A stretch of 64,000 nucleotides of DNA from Patescibacteria group bacterium (lineage in GTDB: Bacteria > Patescibacteriota > Minisyncoccia > Portnoybacterales > UBA2143): assembly GCA_018830295.1 (NCBI GenBank), contig JAHJSM010000002.1:14598-78597 (forward strand). The letters are read 5' to 3'. A program made the position numbers and the translations under genes. How positions within the stretch are numbered: position 1 is the first letter of the stretch; every line of letters begins with the position of its first letter. The notes beneath the pieces are model-generated. The model did not search any database, was not told where the DNA came from, and was given only the letters and a program-made list of their open reading frames with translations. Positions 1 to 61,556 of this stretch are shown here, one piece after another.

Positions 1-941
1 AACATTTAAAAGAATTGGCTGAACATAGCCAGGCGATCGCGCGACAATTCATTCCTTCTCGAGAAGAAGAAAAGAAGGGGAAGATAACGGTCGCCGACCC
101 GCTGTTGGAAGATGAGCATACAGCGGTCAGGGGTTTGGTGCATAAATATTCCAATCGCGCTTTGATTTTGCTAACGATGAATTGCGCGGCTTATTGCCGT
201 TTTTGCACGCGCCGACGGAGCGTTTCCGACATTCAAAAAGGCGTAATTTCCGACTATGATTTGGACCAGATGGTCAATTATCTTAAAAAAAATCCTAAGA
301 TAAAGGAGTTAATTTTATCGGGCGGAGATCCTTTAACCACGCCTCAAATTTTGGAAAAGGCGTTGCGAAAATTCACTAAATTGCCGCAGATAAAAATCAT
401 TCGCGTCGGGACGCGCTTGCCTGTCTCCGACCCTAAGATGGTGAACAGAAAAGTTTTGTCGGCTTTGAGCGTCGTCAAAAACCAACCCCTTTATCTGATG
501 CTCCATTTTGAGCACCCAGACGAAATTACGCCGGCGACAATCAAGGCGGTCAAAAAATTAAAACAGGTTTCAAGCATGATGTTTTCCCAATCGGTCTTTT
601 TGAAGGGGGTCAATGATGATGTTTATGTCTTATCTGAATTGTTTTCCAAATTGGTTGAGATCGGCGTCAAGCCGTATTATATCTATCGCTGCGATTATGT
701 TGAAGGAGCCGAACATTTTATTGTTGATTTTAACAAAGAAATTGAGATTATGAGCAAACTTCGCGCGCGGTTGAGCGGGTTGGCTTTTCCTTCTTATGTG
801 ATTGATATCGCTGGCGGAGAAGGAAAAATTCCAGTCCCGCTTGATTTTTGGAAGTTTGACCGAAACCGTTATCAAGATTTCACCGGTAAAAAAATCGCGC
901 GGCCAAAAAAAGCAGCCCTATGTTCGCGGGCTGCTTTTTGA
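1..941 (+). CDS. KamA/EpmB-family radical SAM protein (lysine 2,3-aminomutase-like), 5'-partial at window edge
   Basis: CAAYCRFCTRR matches the KamA-type CxxxCxxC cluster motif followed by RR; no in-frame stop between window start and the TTG at 15, so the N-terminus is probably outside the window. Confidence 0.7.
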   Translation, partial: HLKELAEHSQAIARQFIPSREEEKKGKITVADPLLEDEHTAVRGLVHKYSNRALILLTMNCAAYCRFCTRRRSVSDIQKGVISDYDLDQMVNYLKKNPKIKELILSGGDPLTTPQILEKALRKFTKLPQIKIIRVGTRLPVSDPKMVNRKVLSALSVVKNQPLYLMLHFEHPDEITPATIKAVKKLKQVSSMMFSQSVFLKGVNDDVYVLSELFSKLVEIGVKPYYIYRCDYVEGAEHFIVDFNKEIEIMSKLRARLSGLAFPSYVIDIAGGEGKIPVPLDFWKFDRNRYQDFTGKKIARPKKAALCSRAAF

Positions 942-32262: not shown

Positions 32263-33390
32263 ATGAATACAGAAGAAAAAACAAAACTTATTTCCCGCTT
32301 TACGGAAGAGGTTATGACGCCGGATGATTTGGCGGAACTTCTGTCTAAGAATGTTTCTCTTAATCACTACATCGGATTTGAAATTTCCGGAAAAATCCAC
32401 CTTGGGACGGGTTTAATGTGCATGCAGAAAGTTAAAGATTTCCATGACGCGGGCGTAAAGTGCCATATTTTTTTGGCTGACTGGCATACTTGGATTAACG
32501 ACAAACTTGGCGGGGACAGAGAGGCGATCGGAAGAGTCGCGGTTGGATATTTTAAGGAAGGAATGAGCGCCGCTTATGAATGTCTTGGCGGCAATCCTGA
32601 AGATTTGAATTTTATTCTTGGCTCGGAATTGTATCACGGCAATGATGATTATTGGAAGACGATGATTGAAGTGAGCAAACACACGAGTTTGAGCAGAATG
32701 CAAAGGAGTATTGACATTTTAGGGCGGAAAGAAGGACAGGCGGTTGATTTCGCTAAATTGATTTATCCAGCAATGCAGGTGGCTGATATTTTCGCGATGC
32801 AGATTCATTTTCCGCACGCCGGGTCGGACCAAAGAAAGGCGCAAGTAATCGCGCGCGATGTCGCGAAAAAACTGACAATTATGCCGCTTAAGGCGGGGGA
32901 AGAAATCGTTAAGCCGGCGGCTGTCCATCATCATTTAATTTTAGGACTGCAAAAGCCAGCGATTTGGCCCATTCCTTCGGAAATTGACAAGCATGAACTT
33001 TGGTCATCAATGAAAATGAGCAAATCAAAGCCCGATAGCGCCGTTTTTATTCACGATTCCGAGGATGAGATAAAACGAAAAGTCATGAAGGCCTTTTGCC
33101 CAGAAAAGGAAACTGACTTCAATCCGATTATTGATTGGGCGGAATATTTGATTTTTACGCGAGAAAAGAGTATAACCATAAGGCGAGAGGAAGCGCATGG
33201 AGGGAATTTGGAAATTAAAGATATTGAAGAATTAAAAGAACTTTTCCAAAAAGGCGAACTTCACCCCCAAGACCTCAAAAAATTTGTCGCGGAATATTTA
33301 TCTGATTTGCTCAAGCCAATCAGAGACCGCTTCAGCAAAGGCAAGCCAAAAGAAATGCTGGAGGAATTAGAAACAGTTTTGAAGGGGTAA
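32263..33390 (+). CDS. tyrS: tyrosyl-tRNA synthetase, archaeal/eukaryal type (no C-terminal S4 domain)
   Basis: YIGFEISGKIHLGTGL...HIFLADWHTWIN, LIYPAMQVADI, KMSKSK and C-terminal ELHPQDLKKFVAEYLSDLLKPIRDRF are each close to M. jannaschii TyrRS blocks; distinct from the bacterial TrpRS at 28155. Confidence 0.8.
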   Translation: MNTEEKTKLISRFTEEVMTPDDLAELLSKNVSLNHYIGFEISGKIHLGTGLMCMQKVKDFHDAGVKCHIFLADWHTWINDKLGGDREAIGRVAVGYFKEGMSAAYECLGGNPEDLNFILGSELYHGNDDYWKTMIEVSKHTSLSRMQRSIDILGRKEGQAVDFAKLIYPAMQVADIFAMQIHFPHAGSDQRKAQVIARDVAKKLTIMPLKAGEEIVKPAAVHHHLILGLQKPAIWPIPSEIDKHELWSSMKMSKSKPDSAVFIHDSEDEIKRKVMKAFCPEKETDFNPIIDWAEYLIFTREKSITIRREEAHGGNLEIKDIEELKELFQKGELHPQDLKKFVAEYLSDLLKPIRDRFSKGKPKEMLEELETVLKG

Positions 33391-33399
33391 TTTAATAAT

Positions 33400-33987
33400 A
33401 TGATAAACGAGCAGAAATTAAAAAAATTATACGCGGACGGATTGTCTATGCAAGAAATATCGGAGAAAATGGATTGGGGATACAAAAAGGTAGTTTATTG
33501 GATGAGCAAGTATGGTATTTTAAGAAGAACAAGAAGCGAAGCCACTTATGTAAAGAAAAATCCAAACGGAGATCCTTTTAAAATTAAACAAAAATTAAGT
33601 TTGAGAGAAAAAGAATTAAAGAGCATGGGGTTAGGATTGTATTGGGGCGAGGGGGACAAAAGCGATTATTCATCTGTTAGATTAGGAAATACCGATTCAC
33701 GATTGATTAAGAAATTTATAGAGTTTTTAATTCAAATATGCGGCGTTAAGAAAGAAAAACTAAAGTATGAACTCCAAATATTTAATGATGCTGACCAGCA
33801 AAAGGCGATTAAATTTTGGATGAAAGAATTAGGAATAAGAAAAGATGATTTTACACAAATAATCAATCATCCACCAAGAGGGGATGGCACATACAGAAAT
33901 AAAAATCAAACGGGTGTCTTAATAGTTTATTGCCACAATAAAAAACTTAAGAAAGAGATTATAAAAATGTTAGAACAAGTATTGTAG
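33400..33987 (+). CDS. LAGLIDADG-like homing endonuclease candidate with N-terminal HTH
   Basis: single motif GLGLYWGEGDKS followed by I-CreI-like LIKKFIEFLIQICGVK; N-terminal LYADGLSMQEISEKMDWGYKKVVYWMSKYGI HTH. Confidence 0.4.
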   Translation: MINEQKLKKLYADGLSMQEISEKMDWGYKKVVYWMSKYGILRRTRSEATYVKKNPNGDPFKIKQKLSLREKELKSMGLGLYWGEGDKSDYSSVRLGNTDSRLIKKFIEFLIQICGVKKEKLKYELQIFNDADQQKAIKFWMKELGIRKDDFTQIINHPPRGDGTYRNKNQTGVLIVYCHNKKLKKEIIKMLEQVL

Positions 33988-34003
33988 TTTAATAATTTAA
34001 TAA

Positions 34004-34289
34004 GCCGATGTAGCTCAGTTGGTAGAGCACCTCCATGGTAAATCTCAAATTTTGCCCATTTTAGCGGAAACGCTGGAATGAATCCCGAATTACGGTTAAA
34101 AGCCCAGTACAGGGTTAAGACCGTGGCGTCAATCAAAATTGATACGCCCGAACGACTGACAAGGGAAGCTAAGCTTTGACACAGTGTCAAAGTATGCTTA
34201 AGATACAGTCTATCCCTCTAATATGTGCTTATAAAAAATAGGGGCGTACGAGAAGGAGATGGTCCTCGGTTCAAATCCGAGCATCGGCT
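34004..34289 (+). tRNA. tRNA-Thr (anticodon GGU) interrupted by a group I intron between positions 36 and 37 (exons 34004-34039 and 34253-34289)
   Basis: exon junction restores a 73-nt cloverleaf: acceptor GCCGATG/CATCGGC, D GCTC/GAGC, anticodon stem CCTCC/GGAGA with loop ATGGT|AA, T-arm CTCGG-TTCAAAT-CCGAG; 5' exon ends in U, intron ends in G. Confidence 0.6.
34040..34252 (+). ncRNA. group I self-splicing intron (213 nt) within tRNA-Thr(GGU)
   Basis: P1: exon AUGGU plus intron AAA pairs with IGS UUUGCCCAU (U.G at splice site); GCGGAAACGC GNRA hairpin; R-like CGAACGACTGACA (34149-34161) pairs with S-like AAGATACAGTC (34200-34210) to form P7; P8 hairpin CTTTGACACAGTGTCAAAG; terminal omega-G. 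Confidence 0.55.
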
Positions 34290-34493: not shown

Positions 34494-34569
34494 GGGCGCG
34501 TCCGTTAATTGGTTAAACGGCTGGTCTCCAAAACCGGTCCTGCAGGTTCGAGTCCTGCCGCGCCTGCCA
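34494..34569 (+). tRNA. tRNA-Trp (anticodon CCA), CCA encoded
   Basis: acceptor GGGCGCG/CGCGCCT (G1.U72), D CGTT/AACG, anticodon stem CTGGT/ACCGG with loop CTCCAAA, T-arm GCAGG-TTCGAGT-CCTGC. Confidence 0.8.
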
Positions 34570-36084
34570 ATGGGTCAGGTTAGAACCTTTAGTTTTATTA
34601 AGTTCTGCCACGAAATTAAAGGGTTCTTTAAGGTCAAAATTCAGTAACCCATCTCTTAGTATAAAGTTTTTGCCAACAGCCCTTAGAAGGGCTTTTTTGT
34701 CTTCAATACTGCCCTCCTCAAACACTTTATAAGCATGGTTGGTTTGGATAATTAGGTTTTCCGCATAATCATGCCACGCTTGATTGGTTTTATCATGGGC
34801 TTCCAATTTTTCTTTGGCTTCCATTTTGGCGTCTAAAATTTCTCTTTTTTTCTTGCCGTACTCTTCTTTTTCAATTAAGCCGTCAGTATAAAGATTAAGC
34901 AATCTATCTAGTCTGTCCTCGCATTTGTTAAATATATTTTGCCAATACTTAATACTATTTAAATATAATTCTTTTTCGTTATTGTGGCTTTTTTTGACAG
35001 CCGTCATTAAAAGTTCTTTAACCATGTCGCCAATAGTGATTTCCTTTATTTTCAACCTTAATTGTTTTTCAATTTCTTCTTCTCTTAAATAGGGTTGAGC
35101 ACATTTTCCTCTTTTTTGGGTGCAGTGGTAATAAACATGTCCTTTTTTCTCTTCGGCTGTAATTGAGCATCCGCAATAACTACATTTGATGATTCCTCTG
35201 AAGGCGAATTGCCAGCGTTGAGAAATGGGGCGGCTATTCTGGCGGAGGACTTCTTGGATTCGATCAAAGATTACTTTACTGATAAGCGGTTCATGATTTC
35301 CTTCGTATTGTTCGTTTTTCATAACCATCATTCCGTAGTAAAATGGATTTCGAAGTAATCGGGCTAAAACACTTTTACTAACTTTTTTATTTTTTAATTT
35401 ACCCCTTAAGTCAAGCTGGTAAGATTTTTCTGCCATTGTTTCCAAATTGAAGTTTCCGGTGGCATATTCCTCAAAAATTTTCTTAATTATCGAACCTTGG
35501 ATAGGATCAATTTCTATCCGTTTTAATACTTTGTTTTCCTTTTCTAAAAGCCGTTGTTTGTGTTTGTCATAACTTTTGCCCGCGATAACGCCTTTTCCGT
35601 CCATATTAATATATCCTATCGGCGCTAAACCTGGCCATTCCTTTTTAGTAGTTAGCTTATGCCTAAAACCTCTTTTAGTGTTAAAACTTAAATCATCAAC
35701 ATATTTTGTAGCCATGCCGAATTCAATTTGCATTAGAAATTTATCATTAACGCCTTCGTAAGTTTTTTCAGCAGTGACAATTTTTGAAATAGTGCCCTTG
35801 CCTAGCCAATAAATAATTCTGCCTCCATCAAGTTCATTTCTAGCTAGTCGGTCTAATTTCCAAGCGATGATCCCGCAATTTCCAGTTTCTATTTTTTCCA
35901 TCATTTCATTAAAAACAGGTCTGCCAATATCTTTGGCTGACCTGGATTCTTTGAATATCTCTACAATGTTTAATCCTTCCTTTTGCGCTAACTGAGTTAA
36001 TTCCCTAATTTGAGAATCAATTGAGAGTATTTGACGATCTTCCTCTTCTGAAGACTTGCGAACATAAAGAAAATATTGGTTCAT
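34513..36084 (-). CDS. large serine recombinase (phage-type serine integrase)
   Basis: N-terminal resolvase catalytic domain YVRKSSEEEDRQILSIDSQ (Ser nucleophile), recombinase domain, zinc ribbon CSYCGCSITAEEKKGHVYYHC, C-terminal coiled coil; last 18 codons (WQARQDSNLQDRFWRPAV) are encoded on the antisense strand of tRNA-Trp nt 34513-34569. Confidence 0.8.
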   Translation of the reverse strand: MNQYFLYVRKSSEEEDRQILSIDSQIRELTQLAQKEGLNIVEIFKESRSAKDIGRPVFNEMMEKIETGNCGIIAWKLDRLARNELDGGRIIYWLGKGTISKIVTAEKTYEGVNDKFLMQIEFGMATKYVDDLSFNTKRGFRHKLTTKKEWPGLAPIGYINMDGKGVIAGKSYDKHKQRLLEKENKVLKRIEIDPIQGSIIKKIFEEYATGNFNLETMAEKSYQLDLRGKLKNKKVSKSVLARLLRNPFYYGMMVMKNEQYEGNHEPLISKVIFDRIQEVLRQNSRPISQRWQFAFRGIIKCSYCGCSITAEEKKGHVYYHCTQKRGKCAQPYLREEEIEKQLRLKIKEITIGDMVKELLMTAVKKSHNNEKELYLNSIKYWQNIFNKCEDRLDRLLNLYTDGLIEKEEYGKKKREILDAKMEAKEKLEAHDKTNQAWHDYAENLIIQTNHAYKVFEEGSIEDKKALLRAVGKNFILRDGLLNFDLKEPFNFVAELNKTKGSNLTHWQARQDSNLQDRFWRPAV

Positions 36085-38081: not shown

Positions 38082-38741
38082 TTATCTTTCTTCAAGTTTA
38101 ATAACTACCGTTTCAAAATCAGAAGAAAGCCATGAATCATCAAGATAGACCAACTCTAAAGTATCCAGATTTATATTGTTGGGCACTTCATAGGTGATAT
38201 ATCCTCTCATTTTTCTTGTTGGCGCTAATTCAATACTTTCAAATTTTGGTTCTTTTTCGTAAATAGATCTCTCATAAATATGTCCTTGGTTATCATAAAG
38301 CTCAAAATCATATGTACTGTAATATTTAGGATTATCTGTGATATTGGTAAGTTCTATATCAATTGCAATATATTTATTACCTAGTGATGGCTGACGCCAA
38401 GAGTCAGATTCTTGATGTTTAGATATGCCGTATGCGATTATTTTACAGTTTTTTAACCATGCTTCTTTTTTAAGATATACTGTAATAATCTGAGATTTTT
38501 CAGGAGCAAGAGATTGAGTTGTTTCTTTCTTTTTGCTTCCATCTCCATCAATAAAAATAATAATAACAATGACAAAGACGATAAGCCCTAAAACAGCCAA
38601 ACAGCCATAACCTTGCTTTTCTTGCTCTTTTTTCTTAATCTCTTTTTCTGCTTTAACCCTCGCCTCTACTCGCATTTTTTCTTCCATTTCTATTTCTTCT
38701 TGTTTTGATAAATTTTCGCTTTTCTTTTTTTCTTCGTTCAT
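38082..38741 (-). CDS. membrane-anchored DUF4352-like protein
   Basis: charged N-terminus, TM, C-terminal block resembling DUF4352 (GNKYIAIDIELTNITDNPKYYSTYDFELYDNQGHIYE). Confidence 0.35.
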   Translation of the reverse strand: MNEEKKKSENLSKQEEIEMEEKMRVEARVKAEKEIKKKEQEKQGYGCLAVLGLIVFVIVIIIFIDGDGSKKKETTQSLAPEKSQIITVYLKKEAWLKNCKIIAYGISKHQESDSWRQPSLGNKYIAIDIELTNITDNPKYYSTYDFELYDNQGHIYERSIYEKEPKFESIELAPTRKMRGYITYEVPNNINLDTLELVYLDDSWLSSDFETVVIKLEER

Positions 38742-38931
38742 ATTTTTTTATTTATATTTTAATTATGTCCAAAAACACAAAGCCCCCCACGAGTGATAGT
38801 CCTTTCGGACCATCCAATAGCCTTTCGACCATTGACCCAATCACGAGTACTCAATGAGGAGCTTAATATCGTGATTGGGGTTTTATGCCATATCCCTATG
38901 AGACGAGACTTAGGCAAATTAAATTGTCTGA

Positions 38932-39870
38932 TTATAGATTATCTTTTTTATTCTTTTTAGTCAACCGCTTGTCGTGGAATTTGTGATAGGCTTCTTTTAG
39001 AAAATTGTTTGAGACACTTAAGTATCTTTCGGTTGTGGAAATTGAGCTATGTCCAAGTAATTTTTGGACAAAGTAAAGATTACAGCCGTTGTTGAGCAAA
39101 TCCACGGCGAAAGACCTCCTCATTGTATGAGGCGTGACTTTTTTGACAATCTTGGCTAATTTGCTATATTTGGTTATCAGTAATTGAACGCCCCGAGGTG
39201 ATAGCCGGGCTATTATATCCCTATCATGACGGACAAATAGGGCAGGACAATTATCTTTTCTTGCCTTAAGGTAATTTTCAAGACCATCAATGGCATTTCC
39301 GGACAGAAAAACCAGTCTAATCTTGCCTCCCTTGCCTATGATTGCGAGCTCTTTTTGTTTAAAATTAATTTGTTCCTTATTTAAATTAGTTAGTTCGAAA
39401 AGCCGGAGCCCAGTTGAAAATAAAAGTTCTAAAATTGCTTTATCTCGCAAATTGATTATTGGCTTGGCTTGGTATCTAAGTGGAGCTTTTAGTAATTTCC
39501 TCAATTCGGACCTATCTAAAAAAGTTACTTCTCTGTCACTAATTTTAGGCAATTCAATGATTTGAGGCGTAATAGCTATTTTATAATCTTGTTTTTGAAG
39601 ATGGGCAATAAAACTGCGGATTATTATTAAATAATGCGATTGGGTGGCTAAACTCAAATTTTGGCTTGATTTGCCTTTTAATTTGCTCAACCACAATTGA
39701 TAATTAATTAAATTTCTTTTAGTAATTTGGTCAATTGGAATATTGCCAAGTTGCTTTTTAAAAAGATCTAAGCCACGGCTATAACTAATTAGCGTGTGAT
39801 GACTTTTGCCTCTAATTTTTAGATATTCCAAAAAATTTTTAATGGATTGTGTTAATTTTATTGTTTCCAT
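38932..39870 (-). CDS. tyrosine recombinase (XerC/XerD-like integrase family)
   Basis: C-terminal catalytic block TPHTMRRSFAVDLLNNGCNLYFVQKLLGHSSISTTERYLSV (R...HxxR...Y). Confidence 0.8.
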   Translation of the reverse strand: METIKLTQSIKNFLEYLKIRGKSHHTLISYSRGLDLFKKQLGNIPIDQITKRNLINYQLWLSKLKGKSSQNLSLATQSHYLIIIRSFIAHLQKQDYKIAITPQIIELPKISDREVTFLDRSELRKLLKAPLRYQAKPIINLRDKAILELLFSTGLRLFELTNLNKEQINFKQKELAIIGKGGKIRLVFLSGNAIDGLENYLKARKDNCPALFVRHDRDIIARLSPRGVQLLITKYSKLAKIVKKVTPHTMRRSFAVDLLNNGCNLYFVQKLLGHSSISTTERYLSVSNNFLKEAYHKFHDKRLTKKNKKDNL

Positions 39871-47785: not shown

Positions 47786-48016
47786 ACCGATAGAGAAAGT
47801 GAGTAACAATTTGATAACCTAACCTTTGAGCTTTTCGCTTGGAGTATGGTTTAAATCCATCTACATAAAAACGGTCTTCTGGCCGGCACTATGTAGATGG
47901 TCTTTGTCCGAAAGGGCATTGGGTGATCTGAAAGGATTGCCGCCGACGGAAGGCCTTTTTTGTTGGCAAAATTTATTGGGGGAAATCAATTTAAATAATT
48001 TAATAATCAAAAAAAT

Positions 48017-60915: not shown

Positions 60916-60944
60916 AAAAGGATTAGGGTGGAGATAATAACAAA

Positions 60945-61030
60945 TGAATAGCCATAGACAATAGGCAGGCGATAAGTCCTATCGAGGTAAAGAAGTTTTG
61001 GGATTTTTGGTCTGTCTATGGTTGACGGAC
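60945..61030 (+). promoter_or_regulatory. candidate ribosomal protein L10 leader (autoregulatory structured 5' UTR)
   Basis: nested stems CCATAGACA...TGTCTATGG and ATAGG...CCTAT immediately upstream of rplJ; no covariance model run. Confidence 0.4.
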
Positions 61031-61037
61031 TTTTTTT

Positions 61038-61556
61038 ATGATTACAAAAGAAAAGAAAAAGGAAATTGTGGATGGTTTGACGGATAAACTTTCGCGGCAG
61101 ACAGCGGTTGTTTTTTTTGATTATACTGGACTGAAAGTTAATCAGGTTCAGAAATTGCGCGAGAAGTTGAGGGGGGAAGAAATAGATTGTCAGGCGAGCA
61201 AAAAAACATTGATTGATTTGGCTTTGGGCAAGGCAGGATTAAGCGGAGTTAAGATTAAGGATTTACCCGGGCAGGTCGCGATGGTTCTTGGGTATAAAGA
61301 TGAGGTTGCGCCGGCTAAGATTTTGTATGATTTTTCAAAAGGTAATGAAAATTTGAAGATTTTGTCTGGTTTTGTTCAGGGAGAGTATTTGGGAAATGAT
61401 GCGATTTTAAGTTTGGCTAAACTTCCGTCTAAGCAAGAATTGTTAGGAAAATTGGTTGGCAGTATCGCGTCGCCTTTGTCGGGCATGGTTAATGTTTTGC
61501 AGGGCAATTTGAGAGGATTAATTTGTGTATTAAAACATAAGGGATTAAAAGCGTAG
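61038..61556 (+). CDS. rplJ: 50S ribosomal protein L10
   Basis: L10 N-terminal KKEIVDGLTDKLSRQTAVVFFDYTGLKVNQVQKLR; followed by rplL. Confidence 0.85.
   Translation: MITKEKKKEIVDGLTDKLSRQTAVVFFDYTGLKVNQVQKLREKLRGEEIDCQASKKTLIDLALGKAGLSGVKIKDLPGQVAMVLGYKDEVAPAKILYDFSKGNENLKILSGFVQGEYLGNDAILSLAKLPSKQELLGKLVGSIASPLSGMVNVLQGNLRGLICVLKHKGLKA

Follow-up and report, generated by a model that had tools for sequence, protein, structure and literature searches.

A predicted group I intron in tRNA-Thr(GGU) of a Patescibacteria genome and the putative homing endonuclease encoded beside it

The tRNA-Ile(CAU) intron of Azoarcus sp. BH72 and the tRNA-Leu(UAA) intron of Anabaena, both of subgroup IC3, are ORF-less elements of approximately 200-250 nt which interrupt the anticodon loop after a U and fold into P1-P9 with P9.0, lacking large peripheral domains, while the anticodon stem holds the exons. 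In the Azoarcus intron, docking between L2 and P8 has been established (PMC4333387). Group I introns located between nucleotides 36 and 37 of tRNA-Thr(GGU) have been described in Patescibacteria (Table 1 of Nakagawa et al., 2026; PMC13011429), under the name 'divergent group I introns' that these authors credit to Castelle et al. (2018), and the tFind model also detects this class (Williams, 2020; bioRxiv 10.1101/2020.01.27.920355). The intron occurs in 3 of 95 complete Patescibacteria genomes, and self-splicing in vitro has been reported for related Patescibacteria tRNA introns, with only Asn and Asp introns having been assayed (Nakagawa et al., 2026; PMC13011429). The literature on Thr(GGU) introns holds neither a covariation-based structure model nor a splicing test of a Thr intron. 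The same survey (Nakagawa et al., 2026; PMC13011429) concluded that Patescibacteria tRNA introns are without homing endonucleases and hence rarely mobile; it mentions no free-standing endonuclease beside Thr introns, and its text contains the term 'free-standing' 0 times.

In the window, by which is meant the whole stretch of 64,000 nucleotides that was analysed, a tRNA-Thr(GGU) gene at 34004-34289, in a Patescibacteria genome of the Parcubacteria type, is split between nucleotides 36 and 37 by an insert of 213 nt (34040-34252). ARAGORN in default mode does not call this gene in the window; with its intron search, it reports a tRNA-Thr(ggt) gene interrupted at 36/37 by an intron of 213 nt (atggt-Intron-aagga), and once the insert is removed the spliced sequence of 73/74 nt is folded into a normal cloverleaf. 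The split had been proposed from the letters of the DNA, together with a tRNA search with intron detection as a check, and it is borne out by that search and by the clean spliced cloverleaf at the same coordinates. A close relative, L202, carries the same tRNA-Thr without the insert and with 1 nt different, the alignment of the two breaking exactly at the predicted splice sites. The anticodon stem of the window tRNA is topped by a C27.A43 mismatch, which the intronless L202 allele shares. The gene fills a conserved slot, tRNA-Thr(GGU)-L33-tRNA-Trp, where relatives keep their only nearby Thr(GGU) gene, and the L33 proteins nearest to that of the window are from Portnoy-, Sung- and Nealsonbacteria. 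Proteins of identical sequence bear the label 'Patescibacteria group bacterium'. A tRNA-Thr(UGU) gene is also found in the window, 1.9 kb upstream of tRNA-Thr(GGU). The elements of the locus are collected in Table 1.

Table 1. Elements assigned at the tRNA-Thr(GGU) locus, in window coordinates, with the basis of each assignment
Element	Position	Strand	Basis and remarks
Short repeat TA[AG]TTTAATAAT[AT]T flanking ORF, left copy	33388-33402	+	Right copy 33985-34003
195-aa ORF, 16 nt before tRNA	33400-33987	+	N-terminal HTH and single LAGLIDADG domain; fold, motif, linkage, polymorphism
5' exon of tRNA-Thr(GGU)	34004-34039	+	ARAGORN intron search; L202 intronless near-identical allele
5' exon content	tRNA nt 1-36		Ends in anticodon GGU; U36 = intron U-1
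P1	34037-34056	+	Exon GGU 34037-34039 and intron AAA 34040-34042 against guide UUUGCC 34051-34056
P1 wobble U36.G at 5' splice site	34039/34054	+	Pair check in window sequence
Predicted ORF-less group I intron, 213 nt, at tRNA 36/37	34040-34252	+	Homologous to >40 same-site introns
P2 hairpin, 8 bp	34059-34078	+	L2 GAAA tetraloop 34067-34070; 8/8 pairs with compensatory changes in family
P3 5' strand UCCC	34083-34086	+	Pairs with GGGA 34163-34166; pseudoknot with P7
P4	34092-34097 / 34119-34124 (element 34092-34124)	+	Encloses P5; invariant except U.G to C-G
P5	34102-34105 / 34112-34115	+	3/4 pairs with compensatory changes; A-rich J4/5 and J5/4 separate P5 from P4
P6	34125-34128 / 34145-34148 (element 34125-34148)	+	Pair check and family alignment
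P6a	34129-34133 / 34138-34142	+	Pair check and family alignment
P7 5' strand A-(C bulge)-GACUG	34152-34158	+	Pairs with CAGUCU 34206-34211; invariant in 22 sequences
P8 hairpin	34167-34198	+	11-nt-type GAAA receptor: GCUAAG 34168-34173 / UAUGC 34193-34197
J8/7 (UAAGAUA) and P7 3' strand (CAGUCU)	34199-34211	+	Alignment and pair check; invariant
P9.0, 2 bp	34213-34214 with 34250-34251 (element 34213-34251)	+	Encloses P9
P9	34215-34220 / 34239-34244	+	AU-rich loop; 4/6 pairs with compensatory changes
Terminal guanosine (omega G), 3' splice site	34252	+	G in 39/39 unique family members
3' exon of tRNA-Thr(GGU), tRNA nt 37-73	34253-34289	+	ARAGORN intron search; L202 comparison

The structural elements that the original prediction had named were all recovered: a 5' exon ending in U (U36) and an insertion ending in G (G34252), the UUUGCC guide, the GCGGAAACGC hairpin (P2 with its GAAA loop), the P8 hairpin, and R-like and S-like elements, CGAACGACUGACA and AAGAUACAGUC, which correspond to the strands of P7. 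Its drawing of P1 holds for the pairing of GGU and AAA with UUUGCC and fails for the additional A-U/U-A pairs, which require a bulged C. The longer P1 (AUGGU and AAA against UUUGCCCAU) was rejected, the extra pairs not being conserved and the nucleotide opposite U33 varying between A, G, U and C in relatives. A P10 helix was also considered, as the AAGG of the window could pair with UUUU, yet the guide of most relatives is CCU, and P10 is not claimed because this guide pairs poorly. A pattern anchored on the exons has 1 match in the window and 0 in 100 shuffles, and the folding energy of the region is -80.1 kcal/mol (z = -6.67 against shuffles). The P1 of the window is AU-rich and weak, L9 has no GNRA loop, and there are no extra helices between P7, P3 and P8. 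No second copy of the intron core was found within the window, and a search of viral contigs found no copy. The guanosine site of P7 was recognised as a sequence pattern, A-(C)-GACUG with CAGUCU and the J8/7 sequence UAAGAUA; the G34154-C34210 pair behind the bulged C is presumed to be the guanosine-binding pair, an assignment which we take over by analogy with Tetrahymena and Azoarcus.

The fold has been examined in an alignment of 22 homologues, which includes the complete Wolfebacteria genome CP011209 (L021). Standard pairs occupy 93.7% of the pair cells in this alignment, against 33-44% when the partners are slid, compensatory changes occur in 31 of 57 pairs, and none of 500 shuffles matches any of the pairing measures. 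Covariation was detected in P1, P2, P3, P5, P6, P8, P9.0 and P9; P4 and P7 are invariant, and covariation therefore says nothing on these two helices. In P1, the U.G and two G-C pairs are invariant across the family, with the intron-side pairs covarying (AU/GC/GU), while in P3 one homologue (L009) has CC changed to UU along with GG to AA. P9.0 is paired in all 39 unique introns with 8 different pair combinations, U-1 is present in 39/39 and a YGCCC guide in 38/39 unique family members, and the blocks GAAUCCCGAAU, GACCGU, CGAACGACUGACAAGGG and AAGAUACAGUCUA are invariant and common to the window intron and its homologues. The intron of strain L240 has 14 differences, several of them keeping pairs intact. 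The GAAA loop of L2 co-varies with the 11-nt receptor in P8 across the family: a P8 motif of the CUA[AC]G...UAUG type was seen in approximately 20 of 22 GAAA introns by eye (6 by a strict CUAAG/UAUG script test), and a receptor-like motif in 0/19 introns with a non-GAAA L2. With all the secondary-structure hallmarks present and covariation in more than 40 homologues, the original reading stands: the insert in the anticodon loop of tRNA-Thr(GGU) is very probably a group I intron of the published Patescibacteria family. The analysis supplies the first comparative structure of the Thr(GGU) family; it runs from P1 to P9.0, the last of these covarying strongly, and includes a tetraloop-receptor switch between L2 and P8.

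The Rfam group I model, whose score had been proposed as a check, gives a result below threshold that is not decisive as a refutation. When 401 nt are searched, RF00028 gives 19.1 bits (E = 0.012), short of the gathering score of 50, and no group I match is listed for the insert by Rfam at the gathering threshold. The alignment to RF00028 covers model positions 1-253, from one end to the other, its helices following in the correct order and in the same register, and the score exceeds the 18 bits that Williams takes as a working minimum within split tRNA calls. A permissive RF00028 search at the loci of 14 relatives gave no match, and the blindness of this model to Patescibacteria tRNA-Thr introns is known from the literature (Nakagawa et al., 2026; PMC13011429); since the model is known to overlook these introns, its score has not been relied on as a test. 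Concerning the subgroup, the Thr introns have been placed on a long branch within IA, not IC (Nakagawa et al., 2026; PMC13011429), and the features of the window intron that bear on this point are a predicted L2-P8 docking, which is IC3-like, and the lack of a GNRA L9.

The intron is not novel, being one more member of the published Patescibacteria family of 'divergent group I introns' at Thr(GGU) 36/37, with which it shares the host tRNA, the site, the phylum, a similar length and the failure of RF00028. ARAGORN miscalls several of its relatives as Arg(GCG) 34/35, matching Table 1 of Nakagawa et al. (2026). The earlier view that a tRNA-Thr host would be unusual in a CPR genome has to be abandoned, since such introns were already published and many further copies exist. 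At least 22 copies were found in a species-genome scan, and the intron is present at 20 of the 74 metagenome loci that were located through the upstream ORF, bringing the further Thr(GGU) copies to more than 40 in total, and the family is common in Patescibacteria. When compared to the Azoarcus and Anabaena introns, the same size range, ORF-less state, position after a U in the anticodon loop, helices without large peripheral domains and exons held by the anticodon stem are observed, as well as the L2 GAAA and P8 receptor of Azoarcus; the host tRNA differs, a GNRA L9 that could contact P5 is lacking, and the core is too divergent for RF00028. The importance of the intron itself lies mainly in annotation, as default tRNA finders miss the window gene, so that genomes appear to be without tRNA-Thr(GGU), and the Rfam group I model does not flag the intron family.

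A splicing route can be proposed from the anatomy of the window intron. The precursor would fold into a standard group I core in which P1 presents the U36.G wobble, and the 5' splice site would be attacked by a free guanosine seated in P7, at the G-C pair that follows the bulged C. The terminal G, placed by the 2-bp P9.0, would then take the place of the guanosine, and the 3'-OH of U36 would attack the 3' splice site, joining ...CCAUGGU to AAGGAG.... During this process the exons would be held together by the anticodon stem, and docking of the L2 GAAA on the P8 receptor would brace the fold, as in the Azoarcus tRNA-Ile intron.

The unannotated ORF directly upstream of the tRNA probably encodes a free-standing homing endonuclease. 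Its motif, GLGLYWGEGDK, includes a G-E-G that is invariant among homologues, with the Glu at the catalytic position, and in its AF2 model (pLDDT 91.9) the alpha/beta fold is that of LAGLIDADG proteins, the helix of the motif having a conserved acidic residue at its end. The top named matches of the ORF in BFVD are phage LAGLIDADG endonucleases, and PF14528 is matched weakly by 12 of 36 homologues (best E = 6.4e-4). The window protein itself has no Pfam match and does not reach the threshold of a curated LAGLIDADG family, sequence searches of Pfam, NCBIfam and PDB found only the HTH, and a Foldseek search of the model against PDB returned nothing significant. The ORF is present or absent between close relatives at a fixed site. 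Strain L240 lacks exactly the ORF and has one repeat copy, the end of the TyrRS gene being joined directly to the tRNA, while in L219 and L220, whose flanks are 98.5-99.7% identical around the tRNA-Thr locus, a 175-bp tRNA-Thr segment of L220 corresponds in L219 to 1131 bp with the ORF and a different tRNA-Thr allele. The replaced allele is not of the NNUCC type described below. The TyrRS gene upstream of the ORF (32263-33390) is archaeal-type (NF006330, 418.8 bits); as a candidate conserved neighbour it was discarded, being absent from all other loci except those of the window's own strains.

The linkage of the ORF is to the tRNA gene, with 74 of 75 evaluable homologues located directly upstream of tRNA-Thr(GGU). 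Strict linkage of ORF and intron is ruled out, given that 20 of the 74 ORF-linked tRNAs carry the intron (27%) and 54 are intronless (73%), and the intron is also found without the ORF at 7 genome loci and in strain L240. The anticodon stems differ between these classes: ignoring kinship, NNUCC is present in 19/21 loci with both ORF and intron, in 6/54 intronless loci with the ORF, where 30 different stems occur and each stem position carries about 0.1-0.2 bits of information, and in 16/19 intronless Patescibacteria loci without the ORF. When only tRNAs that share a D-stem are compared, NNUCC is seen in 0/28 intronless loci with the ORF against 16/19 loci without it, and in intronless tRNAs that adjoin the ORF no other part is as poorly conserved as the anticodon stem. 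In an independent sample anchored on L33, NNUCC was present in only 4 of 9 distinct ORF-less intronless alleles. The scrambled stems of ORF-adjacent intronless tRNAs, set against the NNUCC of intron-bearing ones, suggest at the level of sequence a homing endonuclease that would target the anticodon arm. The tRNA-Thr linkage of the ORF, its polymorphism and the stem pattern appear to be new.

The anticodon-arm DNA, ACTCC-ATGGTAA-GGAGT, reads as a palindrome whose centre adjoins the 36/37 site. That the ORF product is a free-standing LAGLIDADG homing endonuclease cutting tRNA-Thr(GGU) genes in this DNA, and the mobility partner of the intron, is a claim on which our judgement is evenly divided. 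A genome with such an enzyme would need a tRNA-Thr that is uncuttable yet working, either split by the intron or with a recoded anticodon stem, and the endonuclease would drive the spread of the neighbouring tRNA allele, intron included. The fuller proposal, put forward tentatively and at slightly under an even chance, is that a homodimeric LAGLIDADG endonuclease cuts the palindrome and spreads through Patescibacteria as a cassette with an immune, functional tRNA-Thr, immunity being gained through the intron at 36/37 or through compensatory recoding of the stem; the intron route would amount to collaborative homing in a bacterial chromosome. As in phage collaborative homing, presence of the intron would make the host copy resistant to cleavage. 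The phage case differs in that here a bacterial chromosome, a tRNA gene and a LAGLIDADG-type enzyme are involved, the target site is putative, and most endonuclease-linked tRNAs would be protected, if at all, by recoded stems and not by the intron. A known intron-encoded enzyme likewise targets the anticodon-region DNA of a tRNA gene hosting a group I intron; that enzyme lies inside its intron and is of another family, whereas the ORF of the window is outside, upstream of the tRNA.

It is possible, although in our view less likely than not, that the ORF is unrelated to the intron, either as an endonuclease homing to its own site before the tRNA ('intronless homing') or as a domesticated LAGLIDADG/HTH DNA-binding protein like WhiA, with the intron and the odd stems reflecting lineage. 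The intronless state of 54 of the 74 neighbouring tRNAs, which ties the ORF to the tRNA gene and not to the intron, accords with this reading, as do the clustering of intron state on the ORF tree (nearest neighbour in the same state in 52/60) and the many ORF-less non-NNUCC alleles of the L33-anchored control. Nonetheless, the Glu at the catalytic position is invariant in the ORF family, and in WhiA the catalytic residues have been lost. What is replaced between L219 and L220 includes the whole tRNA-Thr gene, the difference in NNUCC persists among tRNAs with the same D-stem, variation in ORF-adjacent intronless tRNAs is greatest in the anticodon stem, and the intron is present in 27% of ORF-linked tRNAs against 3/95 of the complete genomes in the literature, all of which argue against an unrelated ORF.

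A genuine group I intron that needs a protein helper in vivo is unlikely, whether the helper were the upstream LAGLIDADG protein as a maturase or the TyrRS in the manner of Neurospora CYT-18. LAGLIDADG proteins are able to act as maturases, CYT-18 provides a TyrRS precedent for the folding of group I introns (PMC3984707), the ORF and the TyrRS gene both lie directly upstream of the intron in the window lineage, and the weak P1 and an L9 without a GNRA loop for a second tetraloop contact would be consistent with such a need. However, the intron remains intact in L240 and at 7 genome loci that lack the ORF, most ORF-bearing loci (54 of 74) are intronless, no TyrRS gene occupies this position outside the lineage of the window, the ORF keeps its catalytic-position Glu, and related Patescibacteria tRNA introns self-splice in vitro. 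It is hardly credible that the insert is a dead relic in a tRNA-Thr(GGU) pseudogene, with ACC/ACU codons read by another tRNA, for which the nearby tRNA-Thr(UGU) gene and the C27.A43 mismatch might speak, given that the core is invariant and compensatory changes maintain the helices across more than 40 genomes, the exons are intact, the intronless L202 allele has the same mismatch, and the gene sits in the conserved slot of the relatives' only nearby Thr(GGU) gene.

If the ORF does act as an endonuclease against tRNA-Thr(GGU), with the intron as one route to immunity, an essential tRNA gene would be evolving under selfish nuclease attack in a gene-drive-like arms race, which would explain the persistence and movement of ORF-less tRNA introns. 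The survey's view of rare mobility would no longer stand for the Thr(GGU) family, whose dedicated endonuclease would lie outside the intron, natural collaborative homing would extend beyond phages, and the enzyme would offer a compact tRNA-directed meganuclease scaffold. As a minor observation on the surroundings, no duplicated tRNA-Trp fragment was found as an end of the neighbouring island, and this end has been placed by comparison with strain L239.

The tRNA-Thr(GGU) gene at 34004-34289 had been predicted to be interrupted, and further analysis bears this out. Default ARAGORN called four tRNAs in the window, none of them at this position; with intron search, the program returned a tRNA-Thr(ggt) with a 213-nt intron at position 36/37, the spliced form being a normal cloverleaf. 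An exon-anchored pattern (GGTAGAGC-N7-TGGT-N{213,243}-GGTTCRAATCC) had a single match in the window and none in 100 shuffles, and the folding energy of the tRNA/intron region was -80.1 kcal/mol (z = -6.67). The close relative L202 (GCA_043824615.1) carries an uninterrupted tRNA-Thr(GGU) differing by 1 nt from the window's spliced sequence, with blastn homology between the two ending exactly at both predicted splice sites. Every sequence element named in the original prediction was found. At the top of the anticodon stem (tRNA 27/43; window 34030/34259), the window and the intronless L202 allele share a C.A mismatch; the pair is A-U, C-G or G-C in every other intron-bearing relative.

Features located in the window, with their positions
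Feature	Position	Strand	Remark
tRNA-Thr(GGU) exon 1	34004-34039		ARAGORN intron search
Intron	34040-34252		ARAGORN intron search
tRNA-Thr(GGU) exon 2	34253-34289		ARAGORN intron search
LAGLIDADG-type ORF	33400-33987	plus	195 aa; stop 16 nt before the tRNA
Large serine recombinase	34513-36084	minus	Island start; 3' end overlaps tRNA-Trp (34494-34569)
Tyrosine integrase	38932-39870		In island
LOOT RNA motif	38795-38916	minus	In island; above Rfam gathering score
LOOT RNA motif	47816-47941	plus	In island; above Rfam gathering score
Ribosomal protein L10 leader (RF00557)	60934-61045	plus	46.2 bits, barely above gathering score of 44

The assignment of the insert to the group I introns, as originally proposed, can be made with high confidence. 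Scored against the Rfam model RF00028, the window intron lies below the gathering threshold. The alignment from a 401-nt search runs end to end (model 1-253) and places P1-P9 in the expected order, at 19.1 bits and E = 0.012; the same model found no match in the loci of 14 relatives. A scan of species-representative genomes with the exon-anchored pattern yielded, among the up to 120 loci listed, at least 21 additional tRNA-Thr(GGU) genes split at 36/37 by 198-221 nt, every insert preceded by U-1 and closed by a G; nearly all belong to Patescibacteria MAGs (Saccharibacteria, Wolfebacteria, Doudnabacteria, Jorgensenbacteria, Paceibacter, Parcubacteria). Later core-motif checks added the loci L085 and L095 to this set, and a protein-anchored metagenome scan provided 20 more introns.

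Alignment of 22 sequences revealed long invariant blocks (GAAUCCCGAAU, ACGGUUAA, GACCGU, CGAACGACUGACAAGGG and AAGAUACAGUCUA), and RNAalifold recovered from it the anticodon stem together with P1, P2, P4, P5, P6, P7, P8 and P9. When pairs were counted over the full group I structure, including the P3/P7 pseudoknot and P9.0, standard pairs filled 93.7% of cells, compared with 33-44% when partners were slid by 1-3 columns; both sides had changed in 31 of the 57 pairs, and none of 500 shuffles reached any pair measure. Covariation supports P1 (intron side), P2 (8/8 pairs), P3, P5, P6, P8, P9 and P9.0, that in P3 being seen in the homologous locus L009 (CC to UU together with GG to AA), while the comparison is silent on P4 and P7 since these never vary. 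The 39 unique introns all have U-1, omega G and a paired P9.0, the last built from eight different pair combinations, and 38 of them have the guide YGCCC. In the window copy, every helix was verified base by base. As judged from this anatomy and established group I chemistry, a guanosine would bind in P7 at G34154-C34210, the G-C pair behind the bulged C34153, and attack after U36 in its U.G wobble. The terminal G34252, positioned by P9.0, would next take the same P7 site, and attack of U36 on the 3' splice site would yield the mature tRNA-Thr(GGU).

Concerning P1, the pairing of GGU plus AAA with UUUGCC is supported, but not the longer version first suggested. In most relatives P10 is weak; the anticodon stem presumably keeps hold of the exons. 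An 11-nt receptor motif of the CUA[AC]G...UAUG type was recognized in P8 in about 20 of the 22 introns with a GAAA L2 by reading the printed P8 sequences, a strict script test for CUAAG/UAUG being positive in 6; the window's receptor is GCUAAG/UAUGC. The motif occurs in none of the 19 introns with L2 GUAA, GCAA, GGAA, GAGA or GCGA, where P8 is a plain helix. At the level of sequence, this correspondence is a signal of a tertiary contact, docking of L2 on P8 being established for the Azoarcus tRNA-Ile intron (PMC4333387). In L240, from a strain lacking the upstream ORF, L2 is still GAAA but the P8 receptor is degraded (CUAAA...CAAG vs CUAAG...UAUG, window 34168-34197), with pairing kept through changes in P5 and P9; the P8 change may represent early decay or a tolerated receptor variant.

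A threonine tRNA host had been thought unusual for such genomes, an argument which fails because the Thr(GGU) 36/37 class is already in the literature (Castelle et al., 2018; Williams, 2020; Nakagawa et al., 2026). Bacterial tRNA intron classes had been raised from 4 to 21, with a dedicated model built (Williams, 2020), and Thr(GGU) 36/37 introns have been described in three complete Patescibacteria genomes, where RF00028 missed them and tFind found them, ARAGORN miscalled two as Arg(GCG) 34/35, and they fall within the IA clade, on a long branch (Nakagawa et al., 2026; PMC13011429). There, the name "divergent group I introns" is credited to Castelle et al. (2018), and splicing tests covered Asn and Asp introns only. 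Both the ARAGORN and the RF00028 behaviour were reproduced here, several relatives being called Arg(gcg) and the loci of 14 relatives giving no RF00028 match. The window copy is therefore a further member of a known, fairly common Patescibacteria family, and the intron alone is of modest interest.

The window comes from a Patescibacteria MAG: its unannotated ORF upstream of the tRNA has the same sequence as NCBI [quoted passage not shown], and the locus L238 (GCA_018820055.1) matches the window at 100% identity over 6.2 kb. At least 795 homologues exist, all hypothetical. A Pfam search with the protein gave no match, and PF14528 matched weakly in 12 of 36 homologues. The N-terminal part gave matches to HTH modules, among them ones from phage "HNH endonuclease" PHROGs. 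AF2 models the protein with confidence (pLDDT 91.9); Foldseek returned nothing significant from the PDB, and a BFVD search returned phage LAGLIDADG endonucleases. In the motif GLGLYWGEGDK, G-E-G is invariant at the catalytic-acid position. Some homologues (P0037, P0080, P0110), of about 273 aa, carry roughly 75 additional N-terminal residues rich in paired cysteines (CxxC...CSxxC). This segment resembles a zinc ribbon, a hint that DNA-binding modules are added on within the endonuclease-like family.

Of the 75 homologues that could be evaluated in the metagenome sample anchored on the protein, 74 precede a tRNA-Thr(GGU) gene of the same strand by 30-180 nt; the tRNA has the intron in 20 cases and lacks it in 54. 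Among intron-bearing loci of the genome sample, at least 14 have the ORF and at least 7 lack it though upstream sequence is sufficient. In strain L240 (94-95% identical), exactly the ORF is missing and the TyrRS gene end is joined directly to the intron-bearing tRNA; the repeat TA[AG]TTTAATAAT[AT]T flanks the ORF in the window. Between the related loci L219 and L220, whose flanks are 98.5-99.7% identical, a 175-bp L220 segment with tRNA-Thr(GGU) is replaced in L219 by 1131 bp comprising a small ORF, the LAGLIDADG ORF and another tRNA-Thr(GGU) allele. In the nearest relatives without the intron (L201, L205-207, L229-234), the order is tRNA-Thr(UGU)-tRNA-Tyr-tRNA-Thr(GGU)-L33-tRNA-Trp, without TyrRS or ORF.

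The anticodon stem follows a pattern in these alleles. An NNUCC stem is found in 19 of 21 ORF-linked, intron-bearing genes (ACUCC in 15) and in 6 of 54 ORF-linked, intronless ones (0 of 28 with the same D-stem), which display 30 different anticodon stems and 0.1-0.2 bits per stem position; in ORF-less, intronless Patescibacteria genes it is present in 16 of 19 (genome scan, matches listed). Fisher tests of the contrast, with phylogeny not taken into account, give p of ~1e-8 to 6e-10. In the anticodon arm the DNA reads ACTCC-ATGGTAA-GGAGT, a palindrome whose centre adjoins the 36/37 site, and palindromic DNA is the kind of target used by single-domain (homodimeric) LAGLIDADG enzymes. One reading, with a likelihood approaching an even balance, accommodates all these observations: the ORF might encode a homing endonuclease cutting those tRNA-Thr(GGU) genes that have an NNUCC stem and no intron. 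A carrier genome would then need an immune allele, whether split by the intron or recoded in the stem, and the system would be a variant of the collaborative homing known from phages (PMC3984707). Caveats to this reading are that NNUCC stems make up only 4 of the 9 distinct alleles lacking both ORF and intron in an independent L33-anchored sample, that the allele replaced in the L219/L220 pair is not NNUCC, and that loci group by intron state on the ORF tree. The term "free-standing" is absent from Nakagawa et al. (2026; PMC13011429), and a literature search found no other paper tying Patescibacteria tRNA genes to such an endonuclease; the association of the intron family with a free-standing LAGLIDADG gene, moving with tRNA-Thr alleles, is unreported and testable.

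Additional aspects of the surroundings were recorded. An archaeal-type TyrRS gene (NF006330, 418.8 bits; 32263-33390, plus strand) lies between tRNA-Tyr and the LAGLIDADG ORF only in the window's own strains, the tRNA-Tyr/tRNA-Thr(GGU) gap of close relatives being 5-16 nt. In Neurospora, the TyrRS CYT-18 acts as a group I splicing helper (PMC3984707); the position beside the intron is curious and may be coincidence. The short tRNA-Thr(GGU)/L33 spacer is an insertion hot spot in related genomes, with a 23S-rRNA-IVP family ORF in that region in L202 (1010-1357) and HicA toxin and GIY-YIG ORFs in L204 (1295-1534 and 1925-2164); in L219, a PNPOx-like ORF (480-836) moves together with the LAGLIDADG ORF.

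A genomic island of about 21.7 kb (34513-56300) adjoins tRNA-Trp and also encodes a MerR regulator, a C5 DNA methylase, a CAP-domain protein, an SF1 helicase fused to a restriction-endonuclease-like domain and a 1939-aa subtilase/Ig-repeat surface protein. The whole island is missing from strain L239 (flanks 98-99% identical), where alignment resumes at window 56302; a direct repeat of the tRNA-Trp end marking the boundary was looked for and not found. The two LOOT motifs of the island score 73.9 and 67.6 bits, one lying 53 nt upstream of a DUF4352 gene (38082-38741, minus strand) and the other 75 nt upstream of the surface-protein gene (48017), a placement more suggestive of 5' leaders than of free-standing sRNAs.
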